Virus record (IMG/VR): IMGVR_UViG_2778261297_000001
Direction: 5' to 3' (one strand)
From: a virus
Lineage: Duplodnaviria > Heunggongvirae > Uroviricota > Caudoviricetes
Length of the DNA stretch: 29,570 nucleotides
Shown here in pieces: positions 1-29,570 of this stretch. Position 1 is the first letter of the stretch. Each line of letters starts with the position of its first letter. Below the pieces are notes generated by a model, which saw only the letters and a list, made by a program, of their open reading frames with translations, ran no database searches and had not been told where the DNA came from. Position numbers and translations under genes: made by a program.

Positions 1-339
1 GCGCGAGGTTACCGACTGCGGCCTGAGTTTTTTAAGTGACGTAAAATCGTGTTGAGGCCAACGCCCATAATGCGGGCTGTTGCCCGGCATCCAACGCCAT
101 TCATGGCCATATCAATGATTTTCTGGTGCGTACCGGGTTGAGAAGCGGTGTAAGTGAACTGCAGTTGCCATGTTTTACGGCAGTGAGAGCAGAGATAGCG
201 CTGATGTCCGGCGGTGCTTTTGCCGTTACGCACCACCCCGTCAGTAGCTGAACAGGAGGGACAGCTGATAGAAACAGAAGCCACTGGAGCACCTCAAAAA
301 CACCATCATACACTAAATCAGTAAGTTGGCAGCATCACC
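1..339 (-). mobile_element. IS1: IS1 insertion sequence, partial (IRL-proximal 339 bp; truncated by window edge)
   Basis: IS1 terminal sequence GGTGATGCTGCCAACTTACTGAT read on minus strand ending at 339; contains insA; exact reverse complement of 29232-29570. Confidence 0.95.
9..284 (-). CDS. insA: IS1 InsA protein (91 aa)
   Basis: ORF translation [43 protein letters not shown]... matches IS1 InsA from memory; zinc-finger CxxC motifs. Confidence 0.95.
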
Positions 340-460
340 CAATTCTTGGGGCCAGGTTATTACGATCATAAACAGGGAGTGTCGCTTTTGCTGATAACAA
401 ATTATTTCCCATAACAATTCCTTAAATATAAATATGGCAAGCTATATGTTTTGTTATATG

Positions 461-3808: not shown

Positions 3809-6798
<2,990 letters not shown>

Positions 6799-10005: not shown

Positions 10006-11033
<1,028 letters not shown>

Positions 11034-11088
11034 GGATATTTATCAGGATGCTACCAATGAAAGATACTGGAAAGCCAACTGCAAAAAG

Positions 11089-11403
11089 CTAACAACCCGT
11101 AATCGAGTTATCTGAACTGTTAATTTTTATGGTATACCGAGCCTCTGAACAGGGTCGCGTTTCTGGCAACAGCTCGTCCCCTTCACATAACCCGGCAGCA
11201 ACATCCAGGAAGACCTGTCTGATGCTCCTTCTGGCTGCTGCCTCATAAAACTCCAGCGCGGCACCTTCAACACGGTCCAGCGAGATGTCCAGGTCAAAAA
11301 TTTCACCGTCAAAGCGTTCTTTGTCCCGTAACGCTAAAGTTACCGTAACTTTATTCTCAAAATTGCGGATCCCTTTCACAATCAGTTCATATTTTTGAGT
11401 CAT
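11089..11403 (-). CDS. ydfR: YdfR-like protein (104 aa), function unknown, between holin and endolysin
   Basis: ORF MTQKYELIVKGIRNFENKVTVTLALRDKERFDGEIFDLD..; position inside lysis cassette. Confidence 0.65.
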   Translation of the reverse strand: MTQKYELIVKGIRNFENKVTVTLALRDKERFDGEIFDLDISLDRVEGAALEFYEAAARRSIRQVFLDVAAGLCEGDELLPETRPCSEARYTIKINSSDNSITGC

Positions 11404-11407
11404 TGAA

Positions 11408-11623
11408 TTACTCTCCCCGTGCAGCCTTACGCTTGTCTTCTTTAATCTTGAAATAAAGGTTTGTCAGATACGTCAGCATGCCAAATACCAGACTACCCAA
11501 TACACCTATTGCCGCCCACTGTGAGGGCGTGACTTTATCGAGCAACTGTAAAAACCAGTAGCCAGCACTGCCTGCAGAGGTGCTGTAGGCGATGCCCGTT
11601 GTTAACTTATCCATGGATTTCAT
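11408..11623 (-). CDS. essQ: Class II holin (phage 21 S-like pinholin, 71 aa) with dual-start motif MKSM
   Basis: Translation [71 protein letters not shown]; two TM helices; matches S21 family from memory. Confidence 0.85.
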
Positions 11624-11813
11624 AGCCTCACCTCCGCAGATAACGGATGGTGTACACGGTTTGGTTCGAAGAAGGAAAGAAGTTACATTAGCGTAAGGCC
11701 CGAACATCTATTCAAAAAGAAAAACGCCAGCAATTATTCTGGCGTAGCTAAAAATATCGTATAATCTTACACTTCAAAAAATAACTTTATAAAATGCCAT
11801 CACATCATATCTT

Positions 11814-12536
11814 CTAAGAAAATCTTGATAAATATTGGTGCGGAGGCACACCAAAATATCCTCTAAAAACACTTACAAAATATGATGCATTGTCATACCC
11901 GCATATTCCCGCCACCTTGCCGACAGTATGGTTACTGTAGATCAATAATCTTTGCGCCATCATCATTCGTTCTTCAAGAATTAATTTACTAAACGATAAT
12001 CCTTCGTCTTTTAATTTTCTTTTTAACAAACTCTCGCTCATATATAATCTTGAAGATATATCACAAAGTCTCCATGACGCTGAGATATCCGAGTGAATAA
12101 TAGCCTTAACTTTACAACCTAAGCTATTAAGACTTCCGAACAAAAAACTTTGCACTATTTTCTCTGAAGATAAGACAGCAAGACATGCAAGTGATATTTG
12201 ATTTCTAACTACATCCACGGTTTTGCTATCACAATTCAAGCATGCAACCAAGTTCTTTAACAATGAAAAATCTTCACATTCTACTATCAAGTATGACGGA
12301 TAAAACCTTCTTACAGAAAAAGGTGAGAGTGTGTAGTTTTTAAAGAAATCATTAACTGTTTTCTCCTCAACATCTACGATCATTAGATGATCTGTATTTG
12401 ACGAAAAAAGATCTTTTAAATTGTATTCAATGAGAACAGCATTTCCTTTTTTAAACAAAATATCTTCTTTACCAATTCGGACACCAAACGAGTTCAACAC
12501 CAAAATGATAGAACATATGTATGGCATATTATCCAC
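11814..12536 (-). CDS. AraC/XylS-family transcriptional regulator (240 aa), prophage moron
   Basis: C-terminal AraC-type HTH signature (..GKVAGICGYDNASYFVSVFRGYFGVPPHQYL); AT-rich gene between late promoter and holin. Confidence 0.8.
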   Translation of the reverse strand: MDNMPYICSIILVLNSFGVRIGKEDILFKKGNAVLIEYNLKDLFSSNTDHLMIVDVEEKTVNDFFKNYTLSPFSVRRFYPSYLIVECEDFSLLKNLVACLNCDSKTVDVVRNQISLACLAVLSSEKIVQSFLFGSLNSLGCKVKAIIHSDISASWRLCDISSRLYMSESLLKRKLKDEGLSFSKLILEERMMMAQRLLIYSNHTVGKVAGICGYDNASYFVSVFRGYFGVPPHQYLSRFS

Positions 12537-12933
12537 CTGATATCATTGGGGTTACACCAGGTAAGTATAGGTGGAAAATCAATATTCGCCAGTTCAACAA
12601 TAAGGAAAATCTCATTGCATCACAACTATAAAACCATGTGTTTAACTCACAAAAAACAAATCATTAAACTAATCTGTTATATTATAATAGCTGCGTGCAA
12701 TAATAATATTATATGCTCTTAATATTCACTTGAAATATCTTCATATAAAAACAGATTGAATAAAATCTTTTGGGGCTGGTATGTTTACCAACATTAAATT
12801 GCATCTCAATGTTTTCTTTAGCGTGAACAGGATTTTTATAAAAACTGACACTATGAGCATCATAGCGTAGTTTTTACGATTGTAAATATCCTGCATACAG
12901 GAACTCATCACTTTCAGATGATATCGCATACAG

Positions 12934-13893
12934 TTAATTCACCATCAGTCTTAGAGCCAGTTCTTCCGGATAGGGATCGAAGTAATTCTGTGTAAGCAAG
13001 TAATCATTAGGATACTCACCCAGATAATGCTTCAGCAGAGTCAACGGCGCAAGAAGAGGCAATGTGCCAAAGCGATAGTTAAGTATAACCTCGCTCAACT
13101 CTTTACGCTGGCGTGTACTTAAGTAATTACTAAAATACCCCTGTATATGCATCAGCACATTCGTGTGATTTTTACGTGATGCTGGTTTTCTGAGAATCGC
13201 CATCAGATTATCACGATACACCTCAAAGTATGATTCAAGGTCCGCCCACTCGTGTATTGCAGCCACAAATGGTCCCATATCTTTATAGCCTGCCTGGCTA
13301 TGCGCCAACAACTGAAGCTTATAACGACTATGAAAAGCTAATAACTCTCTTCTTGATAATTTCTCCTTGTAAAGGTGATTGAGCTCATGCAAAGCAAAAA
13401 CTCTTTCAATAAAATTCTCACGAAGCACTGGATCATGTAATCGCCCATCCTCTTCAACCGGTAGCCAGGAAAACTTTTCCATCAAAGTGCTCGTAAATAG
13501 TCCCACTCCATCTTTACGACCTCGATTACCATTTTCATCATAGACACGCACGCGCTCCATGCCACAGCTGGGAGATTTAGCACAAACCACAAACCCCGAT
13601 ACATCCTTTAATTTGTCCATATAAGAACGACTAAACTCTGTCATTCTCTCTGTCACATCCTCATTCTGGTCGTGGCTGAAACACATCCGTATATTTCCTT
13701 GCTTCGAGCGCACAAGTCGTAGAGCAGGACGCGGAACTGGCAGCCCTATAGCCATTTCCGGACATACTGGTCTGAATGTTACCCATTCCACTAATTTGTC
13801 CATTAAAAAGTCATCTCTTTTGTGACCACCATCAAAACGAACAGCAGAACCGCCCAAACAACCGCTGATCCCAATCACAGGTTTTTTTATCAT
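12934..13893 (-). CDS. DUF523 (TudS-like thiouracil desulfidase fold) fused to DUF1722 (YbgA-like) protein, 319 aa
   Basis: N-terminal motifs GISGCLGG..VRFDGG, PVCPE and KSPSCG resemble DUF523/TudS Fe-S ligand motifs; C-terminal half resembles YbgA/DUF1722; domain assignment from memory. Confidence 0.7.
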   Translation of the reverse strand: MIKKPVIGISGCLGGSAVRFDGGHKRDDFLMDKLVEWVTFRPVCPEMAIGLPVPRPALRLVRSKQGNIRMCFSHDQNEDVTERMTEFSRSYMDKLKDVSGFVVCAKSPSCGMERVRVYDENGNRGRKDGVGLFTSTLMEKFSWLPVEEDGRLHDPVLRENFIERVFALHELNHLYKEKLSRRELLAFHSRYKLQLLAHSQAGYKDMGPFVAAIHEWADLESYFEVYRDNLMAILRKPASRKNHTNVLMHIQGYFSNYLSTRQRKELSEVILNYRFGTLPLLAPLTLLKHYLGEYPNDYLLTQNYFDPYPEELALRLMVN

Positions 13894-14085
13894 TTCCTCC
13901 CCCTTGACTAATTCATTAACACATAAACTTTGTAGTGCACGGACTAAATTGCCTTTCTGGCTTCATCACTGACAATTTTTCTGTTATTGACTATTCCTAA
14001 TATAGTAGGAAAGTTCTTTAAGTGATCGGTCGTACTCATCTATCTTTCATACTTACTCTCAACTATCAAAAGTACAGGATTTATT

Positions 14086-14610
14086 ATGAAGTTATGGCCT
14101 GTGTTGACTGGCATTGCACTCTCTTTCACTCTTATAGCATGTAAGGCCCCGACACCACCTAAAGGTGTGCAGCCGATTACAAATTTTGACGCCAACCGCT
14201 ACCTCGGAAAATGGTATGAAATAGCTCGCCTCGAGAACTGGTTCGAACGTGGTCTGGAACAGGTCAGCGCTACTTATGAAAAACGGAACGACGGAGGGAT
14301 TCGCGTACTTAACCGTGGATACGATCCAACGAAAAACAAATGGAGCGAGAGCGAAGGTAAAGCATACTTTACTGGAGATACTAAAACTGCAGCGTTGAAA
14401 GTTTCGTTTTTTGGCCCCTTCTATGGTGGCTATAATGTAATCAAACTGGATGATGAGTATAAGTATGCTCTTGTCAGTGGTCCGAACAGAGAATACCTAT
14501 GGATTCTGGCAAGGACCCAAACTATTCCAGATAATGTAAAAGCAGACTATGTGCGTACCGCTCAAAAGTTGGGATTCAATGTCAATGAACTATTATGGGT
14601 TAAACAATAA
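14086..14610 (+). CDS. Bacterial lipocalin (Blc-like) outer-membrane lipoprotein, 174 aa
   Basis: Signal peptide with lipobox LIAC; lipocalin motifs GKWYEIAR and FFGPFYGGYNVI; about 60 percent identical by eye to E. coli Blc. Confidence 0.85.
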   Translation: MKLWPVLTGIALSFTLIACKAPTPPKGVQPITNFDANRYLGKWYEIARLENWFERGLEQVSATYEKRNDGGIRVLNRGYDPTKNKWSESEGKAYFTGDTKTAALKVSFFGPFYGGYNVIKLDDEYKYALVSGPNREYLWILARTQTIPDNVKADYVRTAQKLGFNVNELLWVKQ

Positions 14611-14636
14611 AATCCCCACCCGAAATGATACTTATT

Positions 14637-14665
14637 AGAAAAAAACCAGCCTTTGGGGAGGCTGG
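14637..14665 (-). terminator. Rho-independent terminator on minus strand about 100 nt downstream of Q (candidate tR')
   Basis: Hairpin CCAGCCT-loop-AGGCTGG followed on minus strand by run of 8 T. Confidence 0.55.
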
Positions 14666-14765
14666 CTAAATCAGGAAACAAGCTGTTATATGATAATAAC
14701 TACGTTGCGATTCCAACATTTAAAATGTTAGACTAATGAAAATCAGACAGCAACTTTTCCTTTAA

Positions 14766-15158
14766 TTATTTCGAACAATCAGCATCCATCTCCAATCGGA
14801 GATCCAACACCATCAGCATGCCCTCCACTACGCCCTCAGCTTTCTGGAGCATCCTGCCAACCCAACAATCAGATCGCCCATGCTTACGTGCAAGCGCCAT
14901 AAAAGTCATGCCGCCGACATAATAGTCCACCAATAAATCATGTAAATCGCTGTTGTTTTTTTTCAGGCGAGCCATACATTCACAAATGATCATCGCGTCA
15001 TCGTCACAGCATTGCGGACGAGATCTTACTTTTGAAGGAATTAATCCCTTAAAACCGGCGGCAATGGACGACCAGGTCACATCTTCATGATTATTAGCCG
15101 CCCATGCCCCCCAACGCTCAAGAACCATCTGAATATCACGCATCAACTTACTCCACAA
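14766..15158 (-). CDS. Late antiterminator Q, small 21/82/933W-type family (about 125-130 aa)
   Basis: Cys-rich Zn-binding region ([17 protein letters not shown]) and overall similarity to small Q proteins of lambdoid Stx-type phages; located immediately upstream of terminator and late genes. Confidence 0.7.
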
Positions 15159-15160
15159 AA

Positions 15161-16210
15161 TTAGGCCAGCACACCAATTGCCAGCGCGCGATCGATAAAT
15201 CGAAAAATCAGCTCCAGTTGGGAGCCATACTTCTCTTCAAATGCCACGGTATCCGTATGCAACTCGTCGTGATGCTTTCTGCACAAAGGCAACACAAAGA
15301 GATCATGTGCTTTGGTTCCCATTCCGCCCTGCCCGTGACCAATCAGATGATGCGGATCGTCGGCTGGCATACCGCAGCAAGCACACGGCTGTGTCTTAAC
15401 CCAGCGTGTGTATTTCTCCTTAACCCAACGGTGACGTTTAGGCAGCTTCATGAAAGATTCCGGAGACTCTGGATCAACGGTGATGCTTACCACCGTCTTT
15501 TCTTGTGATGGGTTTTGTTGCTGGTGGGCGTGAGGCAACGGTGCAAGATTTTTTGTGCGCTGTTTCAGTATGCTGGTGGCGGTCTGCTCTCCCGGTACGA
15601 TGTCGCTTTCACGGTACATTGAGCGGATTTTTTCCGCACGCAACCCCAGCGAACGACGTAATACCGCTTCCGGTAGCGCGTCCGCCACCTGATTGCGGAC
15701 CGCCCACCAGGATAATTCAGCCAGAGATAATTCACGCTCCTGCGTACCGCTTATTGCGTGACCGATGACGTCAATCATCCATGCTGACAGGTTTTGATGA
15801 GCTAGTTGCTCGAGTGATTCGGATGTCTGGTCACGCAGCTGGTTGTCGCAGTGCCAGCACAACACCATTGCGCCGGTACCATAACGGTGAATGACGGTTT
15901 CGCTGTGATGATAATCGCCGTGTGGCCACTGGCAGGATTTAATATGGCGCAACAGCCAGTCAGACAATGCACCAGCACCACCAGCAGCACGAATCACCCG
16001 TGCGTTACTGAAAAACGGCAGCAATGTTTTGTCTTCCACCAGCGGCTGGCGAGCGGCAGGAACGACCCCGGACGGCAGATTACGCATGCTTTTCGGTTCC
16101 GGCTCCACCAGTAACCGGGTATTGTGGAATACCGGCATGGGTTCACGGCCCGGCTTAACGATCACCAGCCCGAGTTCCGGTACCAGAACAGGTCGAAGTA
16201 ATACCCGCAC
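15161..16210 (-). CDS. DUF968 protein (YdfU-like, 349 aa) with C-terminal HNH/Zn-ribbon-like motif
   Basis: C-terminal [43 protein letters not shown] cysteine/histidine cluster; nin-region position upstream of Q. Confidence 0.7.
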
Positions 16211-16556: not shown

Positions 16557-16808
16557 TTATTCTTCTGAAAAAGCAGAAAAGCCAGCTTTTATTCCGATCT
16601 CTTTCAATGCCTGTAATGAAGTGACAAACTCACCGTCGCGCAAGATAAATCCGTCCGTCACTCGGGCATCCACATAATTAATTAACGCAGCCCCATTTTT
16701 TTGCAAACACACAATGCGGTAATGACTAGCAATATTTCCATTTTCAACGCACACAGCATAGAGGCCATCTTCACAAAAAATTTTACGCAGTTCTTCGATG
16801 TTCATCAT
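16557..16808 (-). CDS. rem: Rem-like small protein (83 aa), function unknown
   Basis: 83-aa ORF MMNIEELRKIFCEDGLYAVCVENGNIASHYRIV..; position downstream of hokD as in Qin. Confidence 0.55.
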   Translation of the reverse strand: MMNIEELRKIFCEDGLYAVCVENGNIASHYRIVCLQKNGAALINYVDARVTDGFILRDGEFVTSLQALKEIGIKAGFSAFSEE

Positions 16809-16954: not shown

Positions 16955-17024
16955 TTAAGTGCGGGTGCGTTGAGGATGCCTGCCACATCAGAGGTGGCGA
17001 GGGATTTCTCACTCGCCGAGTCTC

Positions 17025-17180
17025 TTACTCCTCAGGTTCGTAAGCTGTGAAGACAGCGACCTCCGTCTGGCCGGTTCGGATTCGTACCTCGCAGAGGTCT
17101 TTCCTCGTTACCAGTGCCGTCACTATGACGGTTAAACAGATGACGATCAGGGCGATTAACATCGCCTTTTGCTGCTTCAT
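17025..17180 (-). CDS. hokD: Hok-family membrane toxin HokD/RelF (51 aa)
   Basis: Manual translation MKQQKAMLIALIVICLTVIVTALVTRKDLCEVRIRTGQTEVAVFTAYEPEE; below ORF track threshold. Confidence 0.85.
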   Translation of the reverse strand: MKQQKAMLIALIVICLTVIVTALVTRKDLCEVRIRTGQTEVAVFTAYEPEE

Positions 17181-17251
17181 AGCCTGCTTCTCCTGTCAAC
17201 GCAAAGCAGAAGTGTCACCTTCGGTGCGAAACAGAGATGTCATGCTTTGGT

Positions 17252-17539
17252 TCAGAGAATGCGTTTGACCGCCTCGCTATATACTTCCGAGCGTTCTCTT
17301 TTCCCAACAGAAATCACGAAAACGACAACTTTCTCGTCTATAACCTGGTATACAAGGCGATAGCCTGAAGACCGGAGCTTAATCTTGTAACAATCAGGCA
17401 TACCACGGAGCTTGTTTGCTTCAATCCGGGGTGACTCAAGTACTTCAACCAGCTTCTTTTTCAACTGTTCACGTACCGTCGAGCCCAGCTTTCGCCATTC
17501 CTTTAGTGCCCGCTCGTCAAAATCCAGAAAATACGCCAT
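17252..17539 (-). CDS. relE: RelE mRNA interferase toxin (95 aa)
   Basis: Full-length match from memory to RelE (MAYFLDFDERALKEWRKLGSTVREQLKKKLVEVL..). Confidence 0.92.
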   Translation of the reverse strand: MAYFLDFDERALKEWRKLGSTVREQLKKKLVEVLESPRIEANKLRGMPDCYKIKLRSSGYRLVYQVIDEKVVVFVISVGKRERSEVYSEAVKRIL

Positions 17540-17778
17540 CAGAGTTCATCCAGCGTCACACGTACTGGCTTAGGATTACGAAGCCGTTCTTTCACTATCT
17601 CCACAAGTTCAGCATCTTCATCACTCAGGAGTGTCTGTTTGAACGGCAAGCGTTCATTGTCAGCGATATACTCGAGCATGAGACGAAGCGCTTCAGAAGG
17701 AGTTACACCCATTTTTTCAAGCGCGGCGTAAGAACGCGCTTTAAGTTCATCGTCAATACGCAGGTTAATGCTACCCAT
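17539..17778 (-). CDS. relB: RelB antitoxin (79 aa)
   Basis: Full-length match from memory to RelB; stop overlaps relE start. Confidence 0.92.
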   Translation of the reverse strand: MGSINLRIDDELKARSYAALEKMGVTPSEALRLMLEYIADNERLPFKQTLLSDEDAELVEIVKERLRNPKPVRVTLDEL

Positions 17779-17784
17779 GTCTTA

Positions 17785-17820
17785 CACCTCTTGTAATTAC
17801 AAATGTCATTACAAGTATCG
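17785..17820 (-). promoter_or_regulatory. relBE promoter/operator region (relO) with TTGTAATTACAA-type inverted repeats
   Basis: Palindrome TTGTAATTACAA at 17791-17802 and related ATGTCATTACAAG at 17803-17815 directly upstream of relB start. Confidence 0.6.
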
Positions 17821-18108
17821 CACTACAACATGCTTAGGGCAAGTCACGAAGGAAGTCAGAAAGTAGTCGTAAGAACGGTGATCACTGTCCGCTTTCTGCC
17901 AGGAGCAGCCATTGCTAAGTCCATCCTGTATTGTGCAGGTCAGCTCGTTTTTAAAGAGTCCGGCCATCATCTTACTGGTACAGACACCATATACTTTGTG
18001 ACGGTCAGGCTACATATGCACAACTCAACTTATTCATCTATTTTTTGCTTTAGCATGTCAGTGTTGCTTTCTCGTCGGCGGGTGAGCGGTGACCTGACCT
18101 GTCGATAA
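17803..18108 (+). CDS. YdfV-like hypothetical protein (101 aa); may not be a real gene
   Basis: ORF of the expected length at the expected position between relB and flxA; no recognizable domain; overlaps relBE operator. Confidence 0.3.
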   Translation: MSLQVSHYNMLRASHEGSQKVVVRTVITVRFLPGAAIAKSILYCAGQLVFKESGHHLTGTDTIYFVTVRLHMHNSTYSSIFCFSMSVLLSRRRVSGDLTCR

Positions 18109-18260
18109 AGGAACGTAACACGTTTTATGCAACACCCGCATGCGGCAGAAAATTATTGCCGAACGTTTACCCCTGTCAACAAGCTTTACTTTCTGAGGCG
18201 CGCCAGCCCGCGAGGAAAACAATCTGAACATCAAACAATTAATGACACAAGAAATACGAT

Positions 18261-18287
18261 TAAAGATTTTTTTGTTCATGCCGATAG
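18261..18287 (+). promoter_or_regulatory. Sigma-28 (FliA) class III flagellar promoter of flxA
   Basis: TAAAGATT - 11 nt - GCCGATAG matches FliA consensus TAAAGTTT-N11-GCCGATAA; 24 nt upstream of flxA ATG with AGGAGA RBS. Confidence 0.7.
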
Positions 18288-18310
18288 TGCTTTTTTAAAA
18301 GGAGAAATCT

Positions 18311-18643
18311 ATGTCTGTCACAATTCAGGGAAATACCTCAACCGTTATTTCAAACAACTCCGCCCCGGAAGGAACATCAGAAATAGCCAAAATCACAAGA
18401 CAAATTCAGGTGCTGACTGAAAAGCTTGGGAAAATCTCATCGGAAGAGGGGATGACGACACAGCAGAAAAAAGAAATGGCTGCATTGGTACAGAAGCAAA
18501 TTGAAAGCCTCTGGGCTCAACTGGAGCAGTTGTTAAGGCAGCAGGCAGAGAAAAAGAATGAAGACGCGACAGTTCAGCCTGATAAAAAAGAAGAGAAAAA
18601 AGACGATACAAATACCGCTGGCACCATTGATATTTACGTCTAA
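18311..18643 (+). CDS. flxA: FlxA (FliA-regulated protein, 110 aa)
   Basis: Translation MSVTIQGNTSTVISNNSAPEGTSEIAKITRQIQVLTEKL.. recalled as FlxA. Confidence 0.85.
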   Translation: MSVTIQGNTSTVISNNSAPEGTSEIAKITRQIQVLTEKLGKISSEEGMTTQQKKEMAALVQKQIESLWAQLEQLLRQQAEKKNEDATVQPDKKEEKKDDTNTAGTIDIYV

Positions 18644-18657
18644 GTGACAGCCGTATT

Positions 18658-18682
18658 GTGGCCCTCATCGGGCCACTTTTCG
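18658..18682 (+). terminator. Rho-independent terminator of flxA
   Basis: Hairpin GTGGCCC-TCATC-GGGCCAC followed by TTTTCG, 15 nt after flxA stop. Confidence 0.6.
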
Positions 18683-19079
18683 CCATCAGCCTTTTCTTTA
18701 AAGACATATTATCTTTGTATCATTTCTGATAGTTAACATTACAAGATATAAGTAATGGACGCACTCCCAATTAGTCTATTTAAATCGCCACGAGTTTAAC
18801 TGACAACCCATGATCAATTATGAATTGCAACTATTTCTGTAGTCACTTTTGTGGGGACAGTCCACAAAACTGCCAACTTCCGCTTCTTGCTCTTAGCGGA
18901 CATTAGCATAGGCTATTTACCATAACGCCTCATTACGCGCACCGCCCAGACTGACTCAGCGCGTTTCTGGCATATCCCCGGTAAAACAAGTAACAAACCA
19001 CCCGAAAATGAACACCAGAAACGCGACTTAAGAATCTACCCTATGAATGGATATGCACTCAACCGAATCGATCTTGGTT

Positions 19080-20009
19080 TCAATCTTTTTTATCGGGATC
19101 AGGCTTCTTTTTAGGTAACTTCGGGGGCTTAACTTGCTGATGACTTTGCGTTCGGCGCGTAAGCCAGGGATGGTCAGCTTTAGGTTTAACATAGTATTTT
19201 GAGCGTAAATCAATACGGGCATTATCCACTCGTTCATGGACACTCTTTTCATCATCCAGTGGTATAGGCTCCGGGCCATCAACATACTTTTCCCAGCCCA
19301 GCGCTTTCCCGTCATACAGAACGTTAATTTCACCGTCAAAGTTCTCGCATACAGTAACAACCGAATGCCTAAGTCGATATCCCCGGCTCTCACTGCGTAC
19401 CTGAAACGCACTGCTTTTGTACTGGAAAGTGAGATTTTTAGACAGAACGCGCTTCGCCTGTAGGCTGAAGATATAACCCAGTTCCTCTTCAGAATGGTGC
19501 ACATCAAGATGAGCATTATCAGTAGTACGAGGCGACGTAGCGAACCGGTTGTTATAGGCTTCAATAAAAGTCGGCAACCATGCATTTGCTGTTTCAATAT
19601 CACTGATATTCTGAAGCCGCATTTCTTTGACCAGCCTGTCCTGTAGTGTCTGATTGGCGCGCTCTACCCGCCCTTTTGCCTGCGGGCTGTTGGCATGGAT
19701 TGGCTCGATGCCCAGTGTCTTTATCGCACGAGTGAACTGGGTCAGCTCACCTTCCCGCTCTGGGTTATTTACCCTGAATATACTGTGTCTATCAGAGTAG
19801 AGAGCGAGCGGTACGCCATGATCATTAAGGTAACCCCGGAGGGTTTCCATGTAAGCCCGGGTTGTTTCAGCAGGCACAAAACGCAACGCCATCAACGCAC
19901 TGGTGGCATCATCAATGAAAACGATCAGTGTACATCTGGGGCCTCGATTTTCAAACCAGTCATGAGGTGAGCCATCAATCTGGATCAGTTCACCGTAAGA
20001 TGGTTGATC
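19080..20009 (-). pseudogene. rve (DDE integrase-core) family transposase/integrase fragment, N-terminally truncated
   Basis: DDE signature ..IQIDGSPHDWF.., ..LALYSDRHSIF.., ..SPQAKGRVERANQTLQDRL..; reading frame extends upstream of annotated Met to a stop at 20010-20012 with no HTH domain; GC-richer than flanking prophage DNA. Confidence 0.7.
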
Positions 20010-20386
20010 TTACCCAGCAATAGTGGACACGCGGCTACCCGCGTTAGTAGCTAATCAACAAAGCTAAGGTTAGTAATTAAGGAGTTCTCCACGGGTGAGG
20101 TGGAGTGCGTGCGCCGGACACGGGTGAGCATCCGGCACTGACAGTTTACTGAAAGGATATTTCCCTGAAAAGTCAGACCATAACGCGAAAGCGCACGGCG
20201 AGGTAGCTGGTTCATAGATAGCCTGTCGTTAAATTTTCGTCGACCGTGCGCTTCCGGTTGTGGCAACCCGCGAAATGGCGCGGCGGTAAGTATGGCGGGG
20301 TTATTCCTTCCCCGTTGAGGACACCGGGTTGTCAGGTTGACCATACGCTTAAGTGACAACCCCGCTGCAACGCCCTCTGTTATCAA

Positions 20387-20444
20387 TTTTCTGGTGACGT
20401 TTGGCGGTATCAGTTTTACTCCGTGACTGCTCTGCCGCCCTTTT
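20387..20444 (+). ncRNA. dicF: DicF small regulatory RNA (about 53 nt plus terminator U-tail)
   Basis: Sequence TTTCTGGTGACGTTTGGCGGTATCAGTTTTACTCCGTGACTGCTCTGCCGCCCTTTTT matches DicF from memory, including the UUUCUGGUGACG seed and intrinsic terminator. Confidence 0.75.
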
Positions 20445-20614
20445 TAAAGTGAATTTTGTGATGTGGTGAATGCGGCTGAGCGCACGCGGAACAGTTAAAA
20501 CCAAAAACAGTGTTATGGGTGGATTCTCTGTATCCGGCGTTAATTGTTAACTGGTTAACGTCACCTGGAGGCACCAGGCACTGCATCACAAAATTCATTG
20601 TTGAGGACGCGATA

Positions 20615-20803
20615 ATGAAAACGTTATTACCAAACGTTAATACGTCTGAAGGTTGTTTTGAAATTGGTGTCACTATCAGTAACCCAGTATTTACTGAAGA
20701 TGCCATTAACAAGAGAAAACAAGAACGGGAGCTATTAAATAAAATATGCATTGTTTCAATGCTGGCTCGTTTACGTCTGATGCCAAAAGGATGTGCACAA
20801 TGA
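20615..20803 (+). CDS. dicB: Cell division inhibitor DicB (62 aa)
   Basis: Internal Met of ORF gives MKTLLPNVNTSEGCFEIGVTISNPVFTEDAINKRKQERELLNKICIVSMLARLRLMPKGCAQ; GAGGA RBS upstream. Confidence 0.75.
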   Translation: MKTLLPNVNTSEGCFEIGVTISNPVFTEDAINKRKQERELLNKICIVSMLARLRLMPKGCAQ

Positions 20804-20991
20804 ATTCAGCATTTGTGCTTGTTCTGACAGTTTTTCTTGTTTCCGGAGAGCCAGTTGATATTGCAGTCAGTGTGCACAGGACAATGCAGGAGTGTATGAC
20901 TGCAGCAACCGAACAGAAAATTCCCGGTAACTGTTACCCGGTCGATAAAGTTATTCACCAGGATAATATCGAAATCCCGGCAGGTCTTTAA
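20800..20991 (+). CDS. ydfD: YdfD small membrane lysis protein (63 aa)
   Basis: MNSAFVLVLTVFLVSGEPVDIAVSVHRTMQECMTAATEQK..; start overlaps dicB stop (ATGA), N-terminal TM helix. Confidence 0.7.
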   Translation: MNSAFVLVLTVFLVSGEPVDIAVSVHRTMQECMTAATEQKIPGNCYPVDKVIHQDNIEIPAGL

Positions 20992-21084
20992 AACAGTTCC
21001 GTAATAAATATCCGGTTTCATTCTTATATGCCAGCAATGGCAGGGATTTGTTCATCCTTAAATCTGTCATGAGGTTAAAACAAA

Positions 21085-23556
21085 ATGAGTAAAGTCTTTA
21101 TTTGCGCCGCTATTCCTGACGAACTGGCAACAAGGGAAGAAGGCGCTGTGGCTGTAGCCACAGCCATTGAAGCTGGCGACGAACGCCGTGCTCGAGCAAA
21201 ATTTCACTGGCAGTTCCTGGAACATTATCCGGCTGCTCAGGACTGCGCTTATAAATTTATTGTCTGCGAGGATAAACCTGGCATACCCCGCCCTGCCCTC
21301 GATTCATGGGATGCTGAATATATGCAGGAAAACCGCTGGGATGAGGAGTCTGCTTCTTTTGTCCCGGTTGAGACTGAATCCGATCCGATGAACGTCACTT
21401 TTGACAAGCTGGCCCCTGAAGTACAGAACGCTGTCATGGTTAAGTTCGACACATGTGAAAACATCACCGTTGATATGGTTATTAGCGCACAGGAATTGTT
21501 GCAGGAAGACATGGCAACATTCGACGGACATATCGTTGAAGCGTTGATGAAAATGCCAGAAGTTAACGCCATGTATCCGGAGCTTAAGTTGCACGCCATT
21601 GGGTGGGTTAAGCATAAATGTATTCCTGGTGCTAAATGGCCCGAAATTCAGGCAGAGATGCGCATCTGGAAAAAACGTCGCGAAGGTGAACGCAAGGAAA
21701 CCGGAAAATACACGTCTGTTGTTGATCTCGCCCGCGCCAGAACCAATCAACAGTACACTGAAAATTCAACAGGAAAAATCAGCCCGGTCATTGCTGCCAT
21801 TCATCGCGAATACAAGCAGACATGGAAAACACTGGATGACGAACTGGCCTACGCTCTCTGGCCTGGTGATGTGGATGCCGGAAACATTGACGGCAGCATC
21901 CATCGCTGGGCAAAAAAAGAAGTTATCGACAACGACCGCGAAGACTGGAAGCGTATCTCGGCATCAATGCGCAAACAGCCTGATGCCCTTCGCTACGACC
22001 GCCAGACTATTTTTGGCCTTGTCCGTGAGCGTCCGATCGACATTCACAAAGATCCCATAGCACTGAACAAATATATCTGCGAATACCTGACGACAAAGGG
22101 CGTGTTTGAGAATGAAGAAACAGACCTGGGCACTGTTGATGTTCTCCAGTCATCAGAAACACAAACTGATGCAGTGGAAACTGAGGTATCTGATATCCCA
22201 AAAAATGAAACCGCGCCGGAAGCTGAACCATCTGTAGAGCGTGAGGGGCCGTTCTATTTCCTCTTCGCAGATAAGGACGGAGAAAAATACGGTCGCGCAA
22301 ACAAACTTTCTGGTCTGGATAAGGCACTGGCTGCTGGCGCCACTGAAATCACAAAAGAAGAATATTTTGCCCGAAAAAATGGCACATACACGGGCTTACC
22401 GCAAAATGTAGATACCGCTGAAGATTCAGAACAACCAGAGCCGATAAAAGTTACCGCTGACGAAGTAAACAAAATTATGCAGGCAGCCAATATCAGCCAG
22501 CCTGACGCCGATAAGTTGCTTGCTGCATCACGTGGTGAATTTGTTGAAGGGATTAGTGACCCGAATGATCCGAAATGGGTTAAGGGGATCCAGACCCGCG
22601 ATTCTGTGAACCAGAACCAGCATGAATCGGAACGGAACTACCAAAAAGCGGAACAAAACAGCACAAATGCGTTACAAAACGAGCCAGAAACGAAACAGCC
22701 TGAACCAGTGGCGCAACTGGAAGTGGAAAAAGTCTGCACCGCCTGCGGTCAGACCGGCGGCGGCAACTGCCCTGATTGTGGCGCGGTGATGGGCGACGCA
22801 ACATACCAGGAAACATTCGATGAAGAGTATCAGGTTGAAGTTCAGGAAGATGATCTGGAGGAAATGGAAGGCGCTGAACATCCACACAAGGAGAACACTG
22901 GCGGCAATCAGCATCACAATAGCGATAATGAAACTGGCGAGACGGCAGATCACTCAATTAAGGTGAACGGTCATCACGAAATCACATCCACCAGCAGGAC
23001 GTGTGACCATCTAATGATCGACCTTGAAACCATGGGAAAAAATCCTGATGCCCCGATCATCTCAATAGGTGCAATATTTTTCGATCCGCAAACCGGAGAT
23101 ATGGGACCGGAATTTAGTAAGACTATCGATCTGGAAACTGCTGGCGGAGTCATTGATCGGGACACCATTAAATGGTGGCTTAAGCAATCACGCGAAGCGC
23201 AATCTGCCATTATGACCGATGAAATCCCGTTAGATGATGCACTGTTACAATTGCGGGAATTTATCGACGAAAACTCCGGTGAATTTTTTGTTCAGGTTTG
23301 GGGAAATGGAGCCAACTTCGACAACACGATTTTGCGCCGTTCATACGAACGGCAGGGGATCCCCTGCCCGTGGCGTTACTACAACGATCGCGATGTACGC
23401 ACAATCGTTGAGCTGGGGAAAGCCATAGACTTCGATGCCAGAACGGCTATTCCATTCGAAGGTGAGCGCCATAATGCACTTGATGACGCCCGTTACCAGG
23501 CAAAATACGTTTCAGTTATCTGGCAAAAACTGATCCCGAGTCAGGCTGATTCTTAA
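21085..23556 (+). CDS. RecE-like (exodeoxyribonuclease VIII-like N-terminal/middle region) protein with Zn ribbon and C-terminal DEDDh 3'-5' exonuclease domain, 823 aa
   Basis: Middle segment DADKLLAASRGEFVEGISDPNDPKWVKGIQTRD recalled from Rac RecE; CTACGQTGGGNCPDCG zinc ribbon; C-terminal motifs IDLETMG (Exo I), WGNGANFDNTIL (Exo II), HNALDDARYQ (Exo III). Confidence 0.8.
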   Translation: MSKVFICAAIPDELATREEGAVAVATAIEAGDERRARAKFHWQFLEHYPAAQDCAYKFIVCEDKPGIPRPALDSWDAEYMQENRWDEESASFVPVETESDPMNVTFDKLAPEVQNAVMVKFDTCENITVDMVISAQELLQEDMATFDGHIVEALMKMPEVNAMYPELKLHAIGWVKHKCIPGAKWPEIQAEMRIWKKRREGERKETGKYTSVVDLARARTNQQYTENSTGKISPVIAAIHREYKQTWKTLDDELAYALWPGDVDAGNIDGSIHRWAKKEVIDNDREDWKRISASMRKQPDALRYDRQTIFGLVRERPIDIHKDPIALNKYICEYLTTKGVFENEETDLGTVDVLQSSETQTDAVETEVSDIPKNETAPEAEPSVEREGPFYFLFADKDGEKYGRANKLSGLDKALAAGATEITKEEYFARKNGTYTGLPQNVDTAEDSEQPEPIKVTADEVNKIMQAANISQPDADKLLAASRGEFVEGISDPNDPKWVKGIQTRDSVNQNQHESERNYQKAEQNSTNALQNEPETKQPEPVAQLEVEKVCTACGQTGGGNCPDCGAVMGDATYQETFDEEYQVEVQEDDLEEMEGAEHPHKENTGGNQHHNSDNETGETADHSIKVNGHHEITSTSRTCDHLMIDLETMGKNPDAPIISIGAIFFDPQTGDMGPEFSKTIDLETAGGVIDRDTIKWWLKQSREAQSAIMTDEIPLDDALLQLREFIDENSGEFFVQVWGNGANFDNTILRRSYERQGIPCPWRYYNDRDVRTIVELGKAIDFDARTAIPFEGERHNALDDARYQAKYVSVIWQKLIPSQADS

Positions 23557-23628
23557 TGTTCAACTGTCGCCGGTTGTGACTGGTATTCTGCAACCGGCGC
23601 TCGTCTAATGTAAGAGATAAAGAAATCG

Positions 23629-23880
23629 ATGAGCGAAGTAATCATGATTGTCTCTCCCGGCAAATGGGTATCCGAAGAGCAGTTAATTGCGCTGAAAGGA
23701 ATAAAAAAAGGTACGTTAAAAAAGGCCCGGGAAAAATCGTTTATGGAAGGAAGGGAATATAAGCATGTCGCTCATGACGGTATGCCATGGGATAACAGCC
23801 CATGCTTTTACAACCTGGAAGAAATTGATCGCTGGATTGAGCGCCAGGCATCAGCGAGACCAAGACGTCATCTTACTTGA
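23629..23880 (+). CDS. Putative excisionase / Xis-like DNA-binding protein (83 aa)
   Basis: Small basic protein immediately upstream of integrase; contains GREY motif as in lambda Xis family; exact start uncertain. Confidence 0.55.
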   Translation: MSEVIMIVSPGKWVSEEQLIALKGIKKGTLKKAREKSFMEGREYKHVAHDGMPWDNSPCFYNLEEIDRWIERQASARPRRHLT

Positions 23881-23899
23881 CTAAAAGCCACACTAACTA

Positions 23900-25195
23900 A
23901 TGAGAGAAGTTGAAATGAAATATCCGACAGGCGTGGAAAACCATGGAGGGAAATTACGTATCTGGTTTGTTTATAAAGGCGTAAGAGTCAGGGAAAATCT
24001 GGGGGTTCCTGACACAGCAAAAAACAGGCGCGTTGCAGGTGAACTACGCGCCTCTGTTTGTTACGCAATAAAAACTGGTGTTTTCGACTATGCAAAACAG
24101 TTTCCCTCCTCACGCAATCTGGAAAAATTTGGTGAGGCCCGACAAGATTTAACCATAAAAGAACTGGCTGAAAAATTTCTGGCACTGAAAGAAACTGAAG
24201 TCGCAAAAACATCACTCAACACATACCGTGCCGTCATCAAAAATATCCTGAGCATAATCGGTGAAAAAAATCTTGCCTCATCGATTAATAAAGAAAAATT
24301 ACTGGAGGTTCGTAAAGAGCTACTGACTGGATACCAGATCCCCAAAAGTAACTATATTGTTACACAACCAGGGAGATCGGCTGTAACTGTAAATAATTAC
24401 ATGACAAATCTTAACGCCGTGTTCCAGTTTGGTGTTGATAACGGTTACTTGGCAGATAACCCGTTTAAGGGGATCTCGCCATTAAAGGAATCAAGAACCA
24501 TTCCGGATCCTCTTTCGCGGGAGGAATTCATCCGTCTTATCGATGCGTGCAGAAATCAGCAAGCCAAAAATTTATGGTGTGTTTCTGTTTATACTGGCGT
24601 TCGCCCTGGTGAGCTGTGTGCACTTGGATGGGAGGACATAGATCTGAAAAATGGAACAATGATGATCAGGAGAAATTTAGCAAAAGACCGTTTCACGGTA
24701 CCAAAAACACAGGCGGGAACCAATCGGGTCATTCATCTTATTAAGCCAGCAATCGACGCTCTCCGGAGTCAGATGACATTAACGAGACTGAGCAAAGAGC
24801 ATATCATTGATGTTCACCTCAGAGAGTATGGCAGAACAGAAAAACAAAAATGCACCTTTGTTTTTCAACCTGAAGTGTCAGCGAGAGTAAAAAATTATGG
24901 TGACCATTTTACCGTTGACTCAATAAGGCAGATGTGGGACGCAGCGATAAAACGTGCCGGACTCCGCCATCGAAAATCATATCAGTCGAGACATACTTAT
25001 GCCTGCTGGTCGCTGACAGCTGGTGCTAACCCGGCATTTATAGCAAACCAGATGGGCCATGCAGATGCGCAAATGGTATTTCAGGTATACGGAAAATGGA
25101 TGTCTGAAAACAATAATGCACAGGTAGCTTTGTTAAATACACAGTTAAGCGAGTTTGCCCCAACCATGCCCCATAACGAAGCAATGAAAAATTAA
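23900..25195 (+). CDS. intQ: Tyrosine site-specific integrase (lambda Int family), apparently intact, 426-431 aa
   Basis: Phage-integrase C-terminal catalytic region (..VYTGVRPGELCALGWEDIDL.., ..RHTYACWSL.., ..QVYGKWM..); 3' end faces att core at 25233; start may be internal Met at 23915. Confidence 0.9.
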   Translation: MREVEMKYPTGVENHGGKLRIWFVYKGVRVRENLGVPDTAKNRRVAGELRASVCYAIKTGVFDYAKQFPSSRNLEKFGEARQDLTIKELAEKFLALKETEVAKTSLNTYRAVIKNILSIIGEKNLASSINKEKLLEVRKELLTGYQIPKSNYIVTQPGRSAVTVNNYMTNLNAVFQFGVDNGYLADNPFKGISPLKESRTIPDPLSREEFIRLIDACRNQQAKNLWCVSVYTGVRPGELCALGWEDIDLKNGTMMIRRNLAKDRFTVPKTQAGTNRVIHLIKPAIDALRSQMTLTRLSKEHIIDVHLREYGRTEKQKCTFVFQPEVSARVKNYGDHFTVDSIRQMWDAAIKRAGLRHRKSYQSRHTYACWSLTAGANPAFIANQMGHADAQMVFQVYGKWMSENNNAQVALLNTQLSEFAPTMPHNEAMKN

Positions 25196-25214
25196 TTTAA
25201 TATTTATCAAATAG

Positions 25215-28670: not shown

Positions 28671-29231
28671 ATGCCAAGCGCCCACAGTGTTAAGCTACGC
28701 CCGCTGGAGCGTGAAGATTTACGCTATGTACATCAACTCGACAATAACGCCAGTGTGATGCGTTACTGGTTTGAGGAACCCTACGAAGCCTTTGTTGAAC
28801 TCTCTGATCTGTATGATAAGCATATTCACGATCAGAGCGAACGGCGCTTTGTGGTGGAATGTGACGGCGAAAAAGCCGGTCTGGTGGAGCTGGTGGAAAT
28901 TAACCATGTTCATCGCCGCGCAGAATTTCAGATAATTATCTCCCCGGAGTATCAGGGGAAAGGTCTGGCAACCCGTGCCGCCAAATTAGCAATGGACTAT
29001 GGCTTTACCGTTCTCAATCTCTATAAGCTGTATCTGATCGTTGATAAAGAGAATGAAAAAGCGATTCACATTTACCGCAAGCTTGGCTTTTCGGTTGAAG
29101 GTGAATTGATGCACGAGTTCTTTATTAATGGTCAATATCGTAATGCCATTCGCATGTGTATATTCCAGCATCAGTATCTGGCAGAGCACAAAACACCGGG
29201 TCAGACTCTCCTGAAGCCGACCGCACAATAG
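28671..29231 (+). CDS. speG: Spermidine N1-acetyltransferase SpeG (186 aa)
   Basis: GNAT acetyltransferase motifs; sequence recalled as SpeG; stop codon TAG directly abuts IS1 terminus. Confidence 0.9.
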
Positions 29232-29570
29232 GGTGATGCTGCCAACTTACTGATTTAGTGTATGATGGTGTTTTTGAGGTGCTCCAGTGGCTTCTGTTTC
29301 TATCAGCTGTCCCTCCTGTTCAGCTACTGACGGGGTGGTGCGTAACGGCAAAAGCACCGCCGGACATCAGCGCTATCTCTGCTCTCACTGCCGTAAAACA
29401 TGGCAACTGCAGTTCACTTACACCGCTTCTCAACCCGGTACGCACCAGAAAATCATTGATATGGCCATGAATGGCGTTGGATGCCGGGCAACAGCCCGCA
29501 TTATGGGCGTTGGCCTCAACACGATTTTACGTCACTTAAAAAACTCAGGCCGCAGTCGGTAACCTCGCGC
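29232..29570 (+). mobile_element. IS1: IS1 insertion sequence, partial (IRL-proximal 339 bp; truncated by window edge)
   Basis: Begins GGTGATGCTGCCAACTTACTGAT; exact reverse complement of 1-339. Confidence 0.95.
29287..29562 (+). CDS. insA: IS1 InsA protein (91 aa)
   Basis: Identical translation to 9-284. Confidence 0.95.

Follow-up and report, generated by a model that had tools for sequence, protein, structure and literature searches.

The segment at 19080-20009 of the DNA analysed here (29,570 nt, hereafter the window) is in all likelihood an inactive relic of a 3274-bp IS1202-family transposon, of whose transposase gene it keeps the 3' 70%; the gene would have been cut by an IS3 insertion and by a later deletion. 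The window spans a cryptic Qin-type prophage of E. coli, bordered by chromosomal DNA (ydfJ ... rspB-speG), and is 100% identical over 18000-21200 to strain EC09 (NZ_CM169492.1), from whose PGAP annotation, over the whole window span, the gene annotation was taken. Around the remnant, the annotated order is hokD, relE and relB (- strand), ydfV and flxA (+ strand), 'ydfW' with an 'IS1202-like ISEsa1 family transposase' pseudogene (- strand), and dicB, ydfD, a gene for an 823-aa exonuclease, xis and int (+ strand); the remnant is thus already marked as a pseudogene by PGAP. The features on which the argument draws are as follows.

11814-12527, - strand: AraC-type HTH protein (HTH_18; PGAP)
16557-16808: rem
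17025-17180, - strand: hokD CDS, whose start region is the transposon target (PGAP; 90% identity to plasmid hok with contiguous leader)
17179-17193, no strand: 15-bp target duplication, left copy, ATAGCCTGCTTCTCC; it recurs after the transposon's right end in SW07091 (L003 5469-5483) and in E. coli C
17194-17223, no strand: terminal inverted repeat at the transposase-distal end, beginning 5'-TGT; 22/30 matches with the opposite end (TGTTAACACC...) of the SW07091 copy, taken as reverse complement
17252-17539, - strand: relE, cargo adjoining the transposon end (PGAP)
17539-17778, - strand: relB, cargo (PGAP)
17803-18108, + strand: ydfV, variable cargo of the Qin version (PGAP)
18311-18643, + strand: flxA, variable cargo of the Qin version (PGAP)
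18875-19079, - strand: conserved non-coding 3' part of the transposase module, with the cargo/module boundary; homology to plasmid ISEsa1-family copies begins at 18875-18885, with ragged and differing left flanks
19080-20004, - strand: transposase remnant, residues 131-437 and the stop codon (307 codons; NF033594, alignment of five homologues); its part at 19080-19229 bears the name ydfW in K-12 annotation
20005-20036, + strand: IS3 scar, the first 32 nt of the left end (IRL), and source of the TAA (20010-20012, - strand) that closes the frame; 32/32 nt to IS3 in strain YPE10 (L007 4057)
20037-20047, + strand: final 11 nt of ydfC, or 12 if T20036, which is ambiguous, belongs to it; the deletion ends here on its right side (alignment with K-12 and E. 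coli C)
20389-20440, + strand: DicF sRNA gene (Rfam RF00039, 76.7 bits, full length)
20615-20803, + strand: dicB (protein 100% identical to K-12)
20800-20991, + strand: ydfD (protein 100% identical to K-12)

The transposase remnant and its family

A preliminary description, made from the sequence alone, had placed a truncated transposase between flxA and dicF, and its position, coordinates and frame hold: the annotation and the Rfam match confirm both neighbours, and 19080-20012 reads on the - strand as a stop, 309 sense codons and a terminal stop. The segment had also been called GC-richer, which is true, although the difference is mild (0.481, compared with 0.456 over the window and 0.40-0.44 in adjoining genes). 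The product of the remnant matches the NCBIfam model NF033594 (ISNCY family transposase; cut-off 250 bits) with 317 bits (E 1.8e-94) over model positions 124-365 of 368; the intact 437-aa protein of strain SW07091 scores 456 bits, the next-best model for the transposase, IS481, scores far under its own cut-off, and Pfam yields just a weak rve_3 match on the remnant. Absent from the remnant are the N-terminal third of the family model and the helix-turn-helix region, which in the SW07091 homologue is represented by HTH_32, HTH_29 and HTH_28 at residues 20-107 (Pfam), so that the loss of the 5' part of the gene together with its HTH domain is confirmed. The upstream stop at 20010-20012 is real and sits within the 32-nt IS3 end, hence it is foreign to the transposase gene.

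Homologues of the transposase range from 437 to 446 aa, the 437-aa Qin protein being shorter by 9 residues, in the N-terminal region, than the 446-aa protein of the K. pneumoniae or Enterobacter copy; over the common part the remnant is 99% identical to the SW07091 protein, with 2 residue differences from the intact copies. D140, D161-D162, D201, E244 and Q251 (SW07091 numbering) are invariant in the alignment of five homologues and are kept in the remnant; they were assigned as catalytic residues through motif inspection. For the IS1202 family, a DDE triad with two further conserved D between its first and second D, and with Q replacing K/R at E+7, has been described (bioRxiv 10.1101/2022.12.17.520857), and the remnant shows this pattern. 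Being without its HTH region, the window copy is a relic of a member of the IS1202 family (ISNCY / IS1202 group) and not a functional member.

A cargo transposon at the start of hokD

Comparison of filled and empty sites delimits the element to which the transposase belongs. In plasmids the hok locus runs uninterrupted through a point at which that of Qin is split, its CDS matching 16963-17194 and its leader matching 5469-5651 in SW07091 (L003), where the detached hok leader lies 3.3 kb from the hok CDS match; insert-free plasmid hok loci match the window only as far as 17194. The intervening transposon of 3274 bp, in the order terminal repeat, relE, relB, ydfV, flxA, transposase, terminal repeat, starts with TGTCAACGC... 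at 17194 and finishes with ...GGTGTTAACA at L003 5468, giving TGT...ACA ends. In SW07091 it is flanked on both sides by ATAGCCTGCTTCTCC, and the 15-bp duplication is perfect both there and in E. coli C; at unoccupied sites the 15-mer is single, as in the IMG/VR Qin-type prophage L179 (1039-1053) and in the hok locus of plasmid pBK28009. The - strand of 17179-17193 carries GGAGAA, the Shine-Dalgarno-like sequence of hokD, and the AT with which the hokD ATG begins. The window retains the left duplication, the left end and the cargo, 2811 of the 3274 bp, whereas the right end, which in intact relatives lies 463 bp beyond the window junction, has been deleted together with the right duplication.

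The earlier statement that no terminal inverted repeats are evident is correct for the vicinity of the ORF but not for the element, since one true repeat lies 1.9 kb off, at 17194-17223, with its partner deleted; looking for target duplications as well as repeats, as had been suggested, gives one end and the left duplication copy in the window and complete pairs in the intact relatives. Nor is the transposase fragment a lone one, as it belongs to a 3.27-kb transposon whose other end and one 15-bp duplication copy are found at 17179-17223. An inverted-repeat search around the intact transposase gene gave just short pairs at chance level. Two other delimitations were rejected: an 18-nt imperfect repeat, ACATTAGCATAGGCTATT, has one arm in hok-leader DNA outside the element, and a ~1.66-kb IS defined by plasmid homology borders has ragged left borders without TGT end and without duplication, the ~1.66-kb border apparently being the junction of the cargo with the transposase module. 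Because passenger genes (relE, relB, ydfV, flxA) lie between its ends, the element falls outside the strict definition of an insertion sequence (1.3-2 kb, transposase only) and qualifies as a transposon or 'transporter IS'. The IS1202 family has TGT ends and includes a class with 15-17-bp duplications, the ISTde1 subgroup (bioRxiv 10.1101/2022.12.17.520857), and by its duplication length the element seems to fit an ISTde1-like subgroup.

Other copies show which parts of the element are constant. The relE and relB genes read outward from the element into hokD and are in the same place in the full-length copies examined (L012, L208, L209 and L214), whereas ydfV-flxA are swapped for other genes in the plasmid versions, which carry 4-12 kb of other genes between the ends. 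The 3274-bp Qin unit itself also occurs in the Enterobacter plasmid pEnt261, with the duplication ATGGCCTTCTTCTCC on both sides, and since this copy has its own duplication, homologous exchange with Qin is excluded as the route of transfer. Relatives of 5.7 to 14.4 kb are present in plasmid hok loci, some of them with nickel and chromate resistance genes; copies of 5706 bp in a C. freundii plasmid (with relBE, two hypothetical genes and a gene for a DJ-1/PfpI protein), 6093 bp in an Enterobacter plasmid and 14445 bp in a K. pneumoniae plasmid (relBE, HupE/UreJ, chrBA, a methyltransferase and ncrABCY) each have their own 15-bp duplication. At a coverage of at least 80%, relBE is matched in 680 plasmids, and among the plasmid matches listed the relBE homology begins at 17176-17194, and at exactly 17194 where copies share no flank. 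The left-end 21-mer occurs in 33 species-representative genomes, about half of the time at a hok start, and two chromosomal copies at non-hok sites, one of 2575 bp with relBE and a decayed transposase gene and one of 1938 bp with neither relBE nor transposase, have duplications matching at 13/15; hok is therefore a preferred target but not the sole one.

Together, these data raise a broader proposal, to which we give an even chance: that the elements are undescribed IS1202-type cargo transposons of 3.3-14.4 kb, with relBE by one end and a 15-bp duplication mostly just 5' of the hok RBS/start, that 'relBEF' of K-12 (relB-relE-hokD) is a product of such an insertion, and that they are also the vehicle of the chromate and nickel block of Klebsiella/Enterobacter plasmids. 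If this is true, insertion severs hok from its mok/sok control and sets it behind relBE.

Loss of the immunity region and the IS3 scar

Proteins DicA, DicC, YdfA, YdfB, YdfC and YdfX of K-12 have no significant tblastn match anywhere in the window, and YdfW, DicB and YdfD are 100% identical there. The PGAP annotation of the EC09 record over the window lists no repressor/Cro-like or O-type replication gene, and the sole HTH protein that it gives in the prophage part is AraC-type, not cI/Cro-like. The absence of DicA-like, cI/Cro-like and O/P-like ORFs from the window, noted at the outset, is thus corroborated by tblastn and annotation; the window contains neither an intact transposase gene nor a repressor gene, and the prophage appears to be without repressor, Cro-like protein and replication initiator.

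The account of this loss as a replacement by transposase DNA did not survive comparison with other Qin prophages. Against K-12 Qin (ydfW region), dicC-dicA-ydfABC are indeed missing from the window, but the same transposase gene is already present in K-12: ydfW is its last 49 codons, 100% identical to 19083-19229, and the K-12 alignment to the window extends to 19264, so that the last ~185 nt of the gene are kept there. At least 80% of the transposase gene is found in 790 of 5426 complete E. coli genomes and part of it in 1166, at a median of one place per matching genome, nearly always beside flxA and in nearly all with at least 99% identity; among the matches listed it is always under a ydfW/ISNCY annotation. 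E. coli C has the order flxA, full transposase gene, ISSen4 insertion, hypothetical pseudogene, ydaT', dicC, dicA, ydfABC, dicF, dicB. Prophage L179 has an intact mok/hok with leader, small genes, a methyltransferase fragment and a DUF977/Ren-like gene, followed in the same orientation by a 339-aa O-like initiator (phrog_391, E 1.3e-91), full YdaT, dicC, dicA and ydfABC. Alignment of the window to L179 is limited to 859-1053 and to the part from 6307 on, from which it follows that the prophage has lost ~5.25 kb and the transposon 463 bp; other strains have different deletions of the same Qin region. On this comparative evidence, the transposase appears to be a long-standing resident of Qin-type prophages and not incoming DNA, and the immunity region seems to have been lost through a deletion, with a 32-nt IS3 scar at its left edge, and not through replacement.

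All comparators align to the window until 20004 and resume at 20036. The scar, TGATCTTACCCAGCAATAGTGGACACGCGGCT, matches at 32/32 nt the left end of a PGAP-annotated 1258-bp IS3 in YPE10, which has a 3-bp duplication and in which the matching 32 nt lie 65 nt 5' of the IS3 transposase CDS, that is, at the left end of IS3. Apart from this 32-nt end there is no other IS3 sequence at the junction, and on its right side the scar runs directly into ...ACCCGCGTTAG, where ydfC ends, the two overlapping by 2 nt (TA). The exact joining of an IS3 end to target DNA points to transposition, whereas an IS3-internal point joined to ydfC points to a later ordinary deletion. The junction is present in one of the 5426 complete E. 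coli genomes, that of EC09, and again, with 1 mismatch in 7648 bp, in the IMG/VR contig UViG_2700989285_000004, which makes it independent of any single assembly. Synthetic junction queries found no complete IS3 at either half-junction among the 5426 genomes, so that the two-step history is drawn from the scar alone.

The order of events that we infer would begin with the insertion of the transposon, with its 15-bp duplication, just 5' of the hokD Shine-Dalgarno and start codon in a Qin-type prophage. IS3 would then have entered the transposase gene after the base that is now 20004, its left end facing the 3' part of the gene. A later, transposase-independent deletion would have run from a point 32-33 nt into IS3 to one 11-12 nt short of the ydfC stop, with 2 nt (TA) common to both ends. 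It would have taken the remaining IS3, the 130 N-terminal transposase codons (the HTH DNA-binding part) and the transposase-proximal end of the transposon; with them would have gone the leader already detached from hok, the gene for the O-like replication protein, ydaT, dicC, dicA, dicBp with its operators, ydfA, ydfB and nearly all of ydfC. With one end and no DNA-binding domain, the transposon would now be immobile.

Other readings of the same junction were considered. The insertion of foreign transposase DNA in place of the immunity/replication region, displacing dicC-dicA-ydfABC, has almost no probability: the fragment does occupy the spot of K-12 ydfX-dicC-dicA-ydfABC and is slightly GC-richer than its neighbours, but K-12 has the end of the same gene in the same place, E. 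coli C has the full gene beside the immunity region, the arrangement in L179 also contradicts displacement, and on the side of the missing region the fragment borders on an IS3 end and not on the terminus of the transposase's own element. An assembly artefact, by which a complete IS3 and perhaps more DNA would have collapsed to 32 nt at the joining of contigs, is very unlikely, even though IS copies are classic collapse points, the identical EC09 record is a shotgun-derived chromosome and other IS3 copies exist in the EC09 genome; a collapse would keep both IS3 ends, whereas only the left one is found, abutting ydfC with an overlap too short for an assembler join, and the second assembly has the same junction.

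A different route to the same scar would start from an ancestor like strain S3, which carries a different, intact IS3-family element (IS911-like) 1 bp from the IS3 junction of the window, joined to ydfC 53 nt 5' of the right edge of the window. In such an ancestor this element would already have been fused to ydfC by an IS-mediated deletion, IS3 would have inserted 1 bp from its end, and a small deletion would have taken out the greater part of IS3 together with the IS911-like element and 53 nt of ydfC. Some IS3-family elements favour insertion beside IS ends, and we regard this route as unlikely but credible; window and S3 have no derived SNP in common, a genome with both elements was not found among the 5426 complete E. 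coli genomes, and the route leaves the match of the right edge with SW07091 unaccounted for. As for the truncated ORF itself, it is extremely unlikely to have been kept for a function, for example as an HTH-less catalytic-core inhibitor of related transposases. It offers 309 uninterrupted codons and all catalytic residues, and a promoter scan gives a weak - strand promoter-like hexamer pair at 19954-19927 with in-frame TTG/ATG at 19895/19892, so an HTH-less protein may be expressed from an internal start; yet the 4 promoter-like matches found compare with 3.7 expected by chance, a product from the internal start would be without the first catalytic D, an open frame with so few differences from intact copies is expected after a recent deletion and carries no sign of selection, and the junction is confined to a single one of the 5426 complete genomes. 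We therefore retain insertion of IS3 followed by deletion, with a truncated ORF that would have no function.

Several deletion edges in this region recur. The right edge of the window's deletion is the same base as the deletion edge in SW07091, although the two deletions look unrelated, and another right edge, 495 bp further on, is common to four other strains with four different left edges. Both recurrent right-edge sites carry CC(C/G)GCGTTA just inside the part that was kept, and each of the junctions allows an alignment across TA; the motif search for TAYCCSGCGTTA gave one exact match against 0.25 expected by chance, and in an IMG/VR left-flank survey one recurrent edge site (site ii) was also a mosaic boundary among lambdoid prophages. 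SNP comparison tied the window lineage to none of SW07091, S3, K-12 or E. coli C, the SNPs of the window being private and common only to L159 of IMG/VR, and no mechanism for the recurrent edges or for the 1-bp coincidence with S3 emerged from the motif search, the left-flank survey or the SNPs. The 47-nt and 72-nt 'fillers' (TOE17, SW07091), considered as templated insertions, were rejected as ordinary Qin sequence of fuller prophages.

The deletion also bears on the genes that follow it. The major promoter dicBp lies upstream of ydfA, no other promoter having been found up to dicF, and is induced 22-fold by deletion of dicA; DicB and DicF are toxic, and the rem product is a DicA antirepressor (PMC10448788). 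No + strand sigma-70-like site was found by promoter scan in 18200-20800, and dicF-dicB-ydfD are predicted to be transcriptionally orphaned and silent. Promoter loss is probably the reason why a dicA-less cell tolerates these toxic genes, and read-through from flxA into dicF/dicB is possible past a hairpin at 18658-18680 that was found by eye and is followed by only four T. The rem gene is still in the window, though its target DicA is gone.

Relation to known elements

The remnant as such is routine prophage decay and does not change the understanding of Qin. What it adds is an example of a natural E. coli lineage without dicA, a gene whose absence in K-12 leads to derepression of the toxic dicBF operon; such a loss can occur if dicBp goes too. 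It also gives an account of the identity of K-12 ydfW. The parent transposon would also account for hokD without its mok/sok control region, the detached leader lying beyond the transposon in fuller Qin prophages, and for relBE and hokD as a single operon formed by its insertion, and would provide a mobile vehicle by which relBE and metal-resistance genes travel together among enterobacterial plasmids, with hok loci as the favoured sites of insertion. In the literature on ydfW/ydfX/intK, on hokD/relF/flxA and on IS1202/ISEsa1 with hok/relBE, older subscription-journal papers being outside the scope of the search, no description of the transposon was found, and the parent element is apparently an undescribed variant of a known family, with cargo and with a preference for hok.

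The closest parallel to the remnant is the ydfW/ydfX region of K-12 Qin, called the intK pseudogene in older K-12 annotation; locus and gene are the same, and both are deletion relics of the same transposase. In K-12, however, no more than the final ~60 codons remain, joined to the ydaT fragment ydfX, and dicC-dicA-ydfABC have been kept; in the window 307 codons remain, the break is marked by an IS3 scar and the immunity switch is gone altogether. The loss also resembles IS-associated decay of cryptic lambdoid prophages, such as the IS2 that truncates the exonuclease gene and intQ in K-12 Qin, in that an IS insertion is followed by deletion of neighbouring genes; here, on the other hand, the IS itself is nearly all deleted, with a 32-nt end left, and the repressor was lost together with the promoter that it controls.

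As to the transposon, PGAP names its transposase after ISEsa1 ('IS1202-like element ISEsa1 family transposase'), and transposase size and family signatures fit. ISEsa1 is listed in ISfinder (IS1202 family) as an element of 1609 bp with a 15/22 inverted repeat, a 439-aa transposase and no target duplication detected (PMC10132070), from which listed description the element studied here differs by its size of 3.3-14.4 kb, its cargo, its matched ends and its 15-bp duplications. The left borders of the ~1.6-kb ISEsa1-type unit are ragged and context-dependent, with no TGT end; such a unit looks like the transposase module only, and a definition limited to the module may be a reason why no duplication was found for ISEsa1. 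The ISAjo2/ISAba32 group (dif/pdif sites) and the ISKpn21-like 'transporter IS' share with our element the transposase family, TGT ends, oriented and site-preferring insertion and occasional passengers. Unlike these elements, the one described here has the hok start region and not Xer sites as its preferred target and a duplication of 15 bp, as in the ISTde1 length class, and not 5-6 bp, and its cargo comprises several genes, with relBE beside one end in the full-length copies examined.

The relBE transposon and the hok locus

A single 3274-bp transposon with the ends TGT...ACA comprises relE, relB, ydfV, flxA and the transposase gene; its target duplication, 15 bp long and perfect, lies at the Shine-Dalgarno sequence and start codon of hokD. 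On this reading, the relB-relE-hokD operon of K-12 is itself the product of the transposon's insertion. The hok leader was detached; fuller Qin prophages have it at a distance of 3.3 kb, and it has been deleted in both K-12 and the window.

Extent of the transposon
Window 17179-20004: surviving part, from the left copy of the target duplication
L003 (strain SW07091) 5468 and L010 6388: right end, present in relatives only

Comparison of further copies (L208, Citrobacter freundii plasmid NZ_CP033743; L209, Klebsiella pneumoniae plasmid NZ_CP015501; also L012, L214, L211 and L221) revealed 5.7-kb, 6.1-kb, and 14.4-kb versions that carry different cargo between the same ends, including the metal-resistance genes chrBA and ncrABCY, and each of these three versions sits in a plasmid hok locus with its own 15-bp duplication. 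Two copies occupy non-hok sites: one of 2575 bp, in which relBE is accompanied by a decayed transposase gene, and one of 1938 bp that contains neither relBE nor transposase. Compared with the plasmid versions of the transposase (446 aa), the Qin protein (437 aa) is missing nine residues, QESINRHIT, in its N-terminal region (L003 4081-5394 versus L011 1706-3046), and may already be defective in this short form; the longer form (1341 nt) is found in some Qin copies. PGAP divides the single open frame into "ydfW" (window 19080-19229) and a transposase pseudogene "missing C-terminus" (19350-19988), and does so even where the 437-aa ORF is intact, a division that looks like an artefact of transferring the K-12 ydfW name.

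Deletion edges and IS3-family insertions

Deletion edges recur at two sites.

Recurrent deletion edges
Window 20036/20037: L179 (a fuller Qin-type prophage) 6306/7
Window 20530/20531: L179 6801/2

One right edge is common to the window and SW07091, and a second to TOE17, YPE10, MEI7BO1-21, and 2020CK-00188, the left edges differing in all four. CC(C/G)GCGTTA follows both sites, and every junction there can be drawn across a TA; a motif search and a survey of left flanks in IMG/VR found no mechanism for this recurrence. The transposase gene has also received two distinct IS3-family insertions 1 bp apart, IS3 (window 20004/20005) and an IS911-like element in strain S3 (L005 5006), each associated with a deletion into ydfC, the right edges of which are 53 nt apart.

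The early region and comparison with K-12 Qin

The transposon-free Qin-type prophage L179 (IMGVR_UViG_2565956714_000005) has a full early region and is preferable to K-12 as a reference for the genes lost by Qin.

L179 850-6400: early region, with intact mok/hok, a DUF977/Ren-like gene, a 339-aa O-like initiator, full YdaT, dicC, and dicA

The product of rem is reported to be an antirepressor of DicA (PMC10448788), and rem is kept in the window (16557-16808, minus strand) although DicA and the promoter that rem derepresses are gone. The window starts and finishes within two IS1A copies in inverted orientation, the 344-nt portions of which are 99.7% reverse-complementary; the K-12 gene order is kept.

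Other features of the window
1-344: left IS1A copy, interrupting the ydfI/ydfJ region
3843-4041, minus strand: IS009 (Rfam, 221 bits), unrelated to the truncated transposase segment
9405-9789, minus strand: cspA thermoregulator upstream of cspI (Rfam, 114 bits), likewise unrelated
11000-15200 and 21085-25200: Qin segments unlike K-12
29227-29570: right IS1A copy, between speG and ynfC

Whereas K-12 Qin has ydfT, cspB, and cspF, the window carries a short Q-family antiterminator, an AraC-type regulator, and YbgA-family and lipocalin genes; similarly, in place of the IS2-disrupted remnant of K-12, it has xis, int, and an uninterrupted 823-aa exonuclease with an Rv2179c-like 3'-5' exoribonuclease domain.
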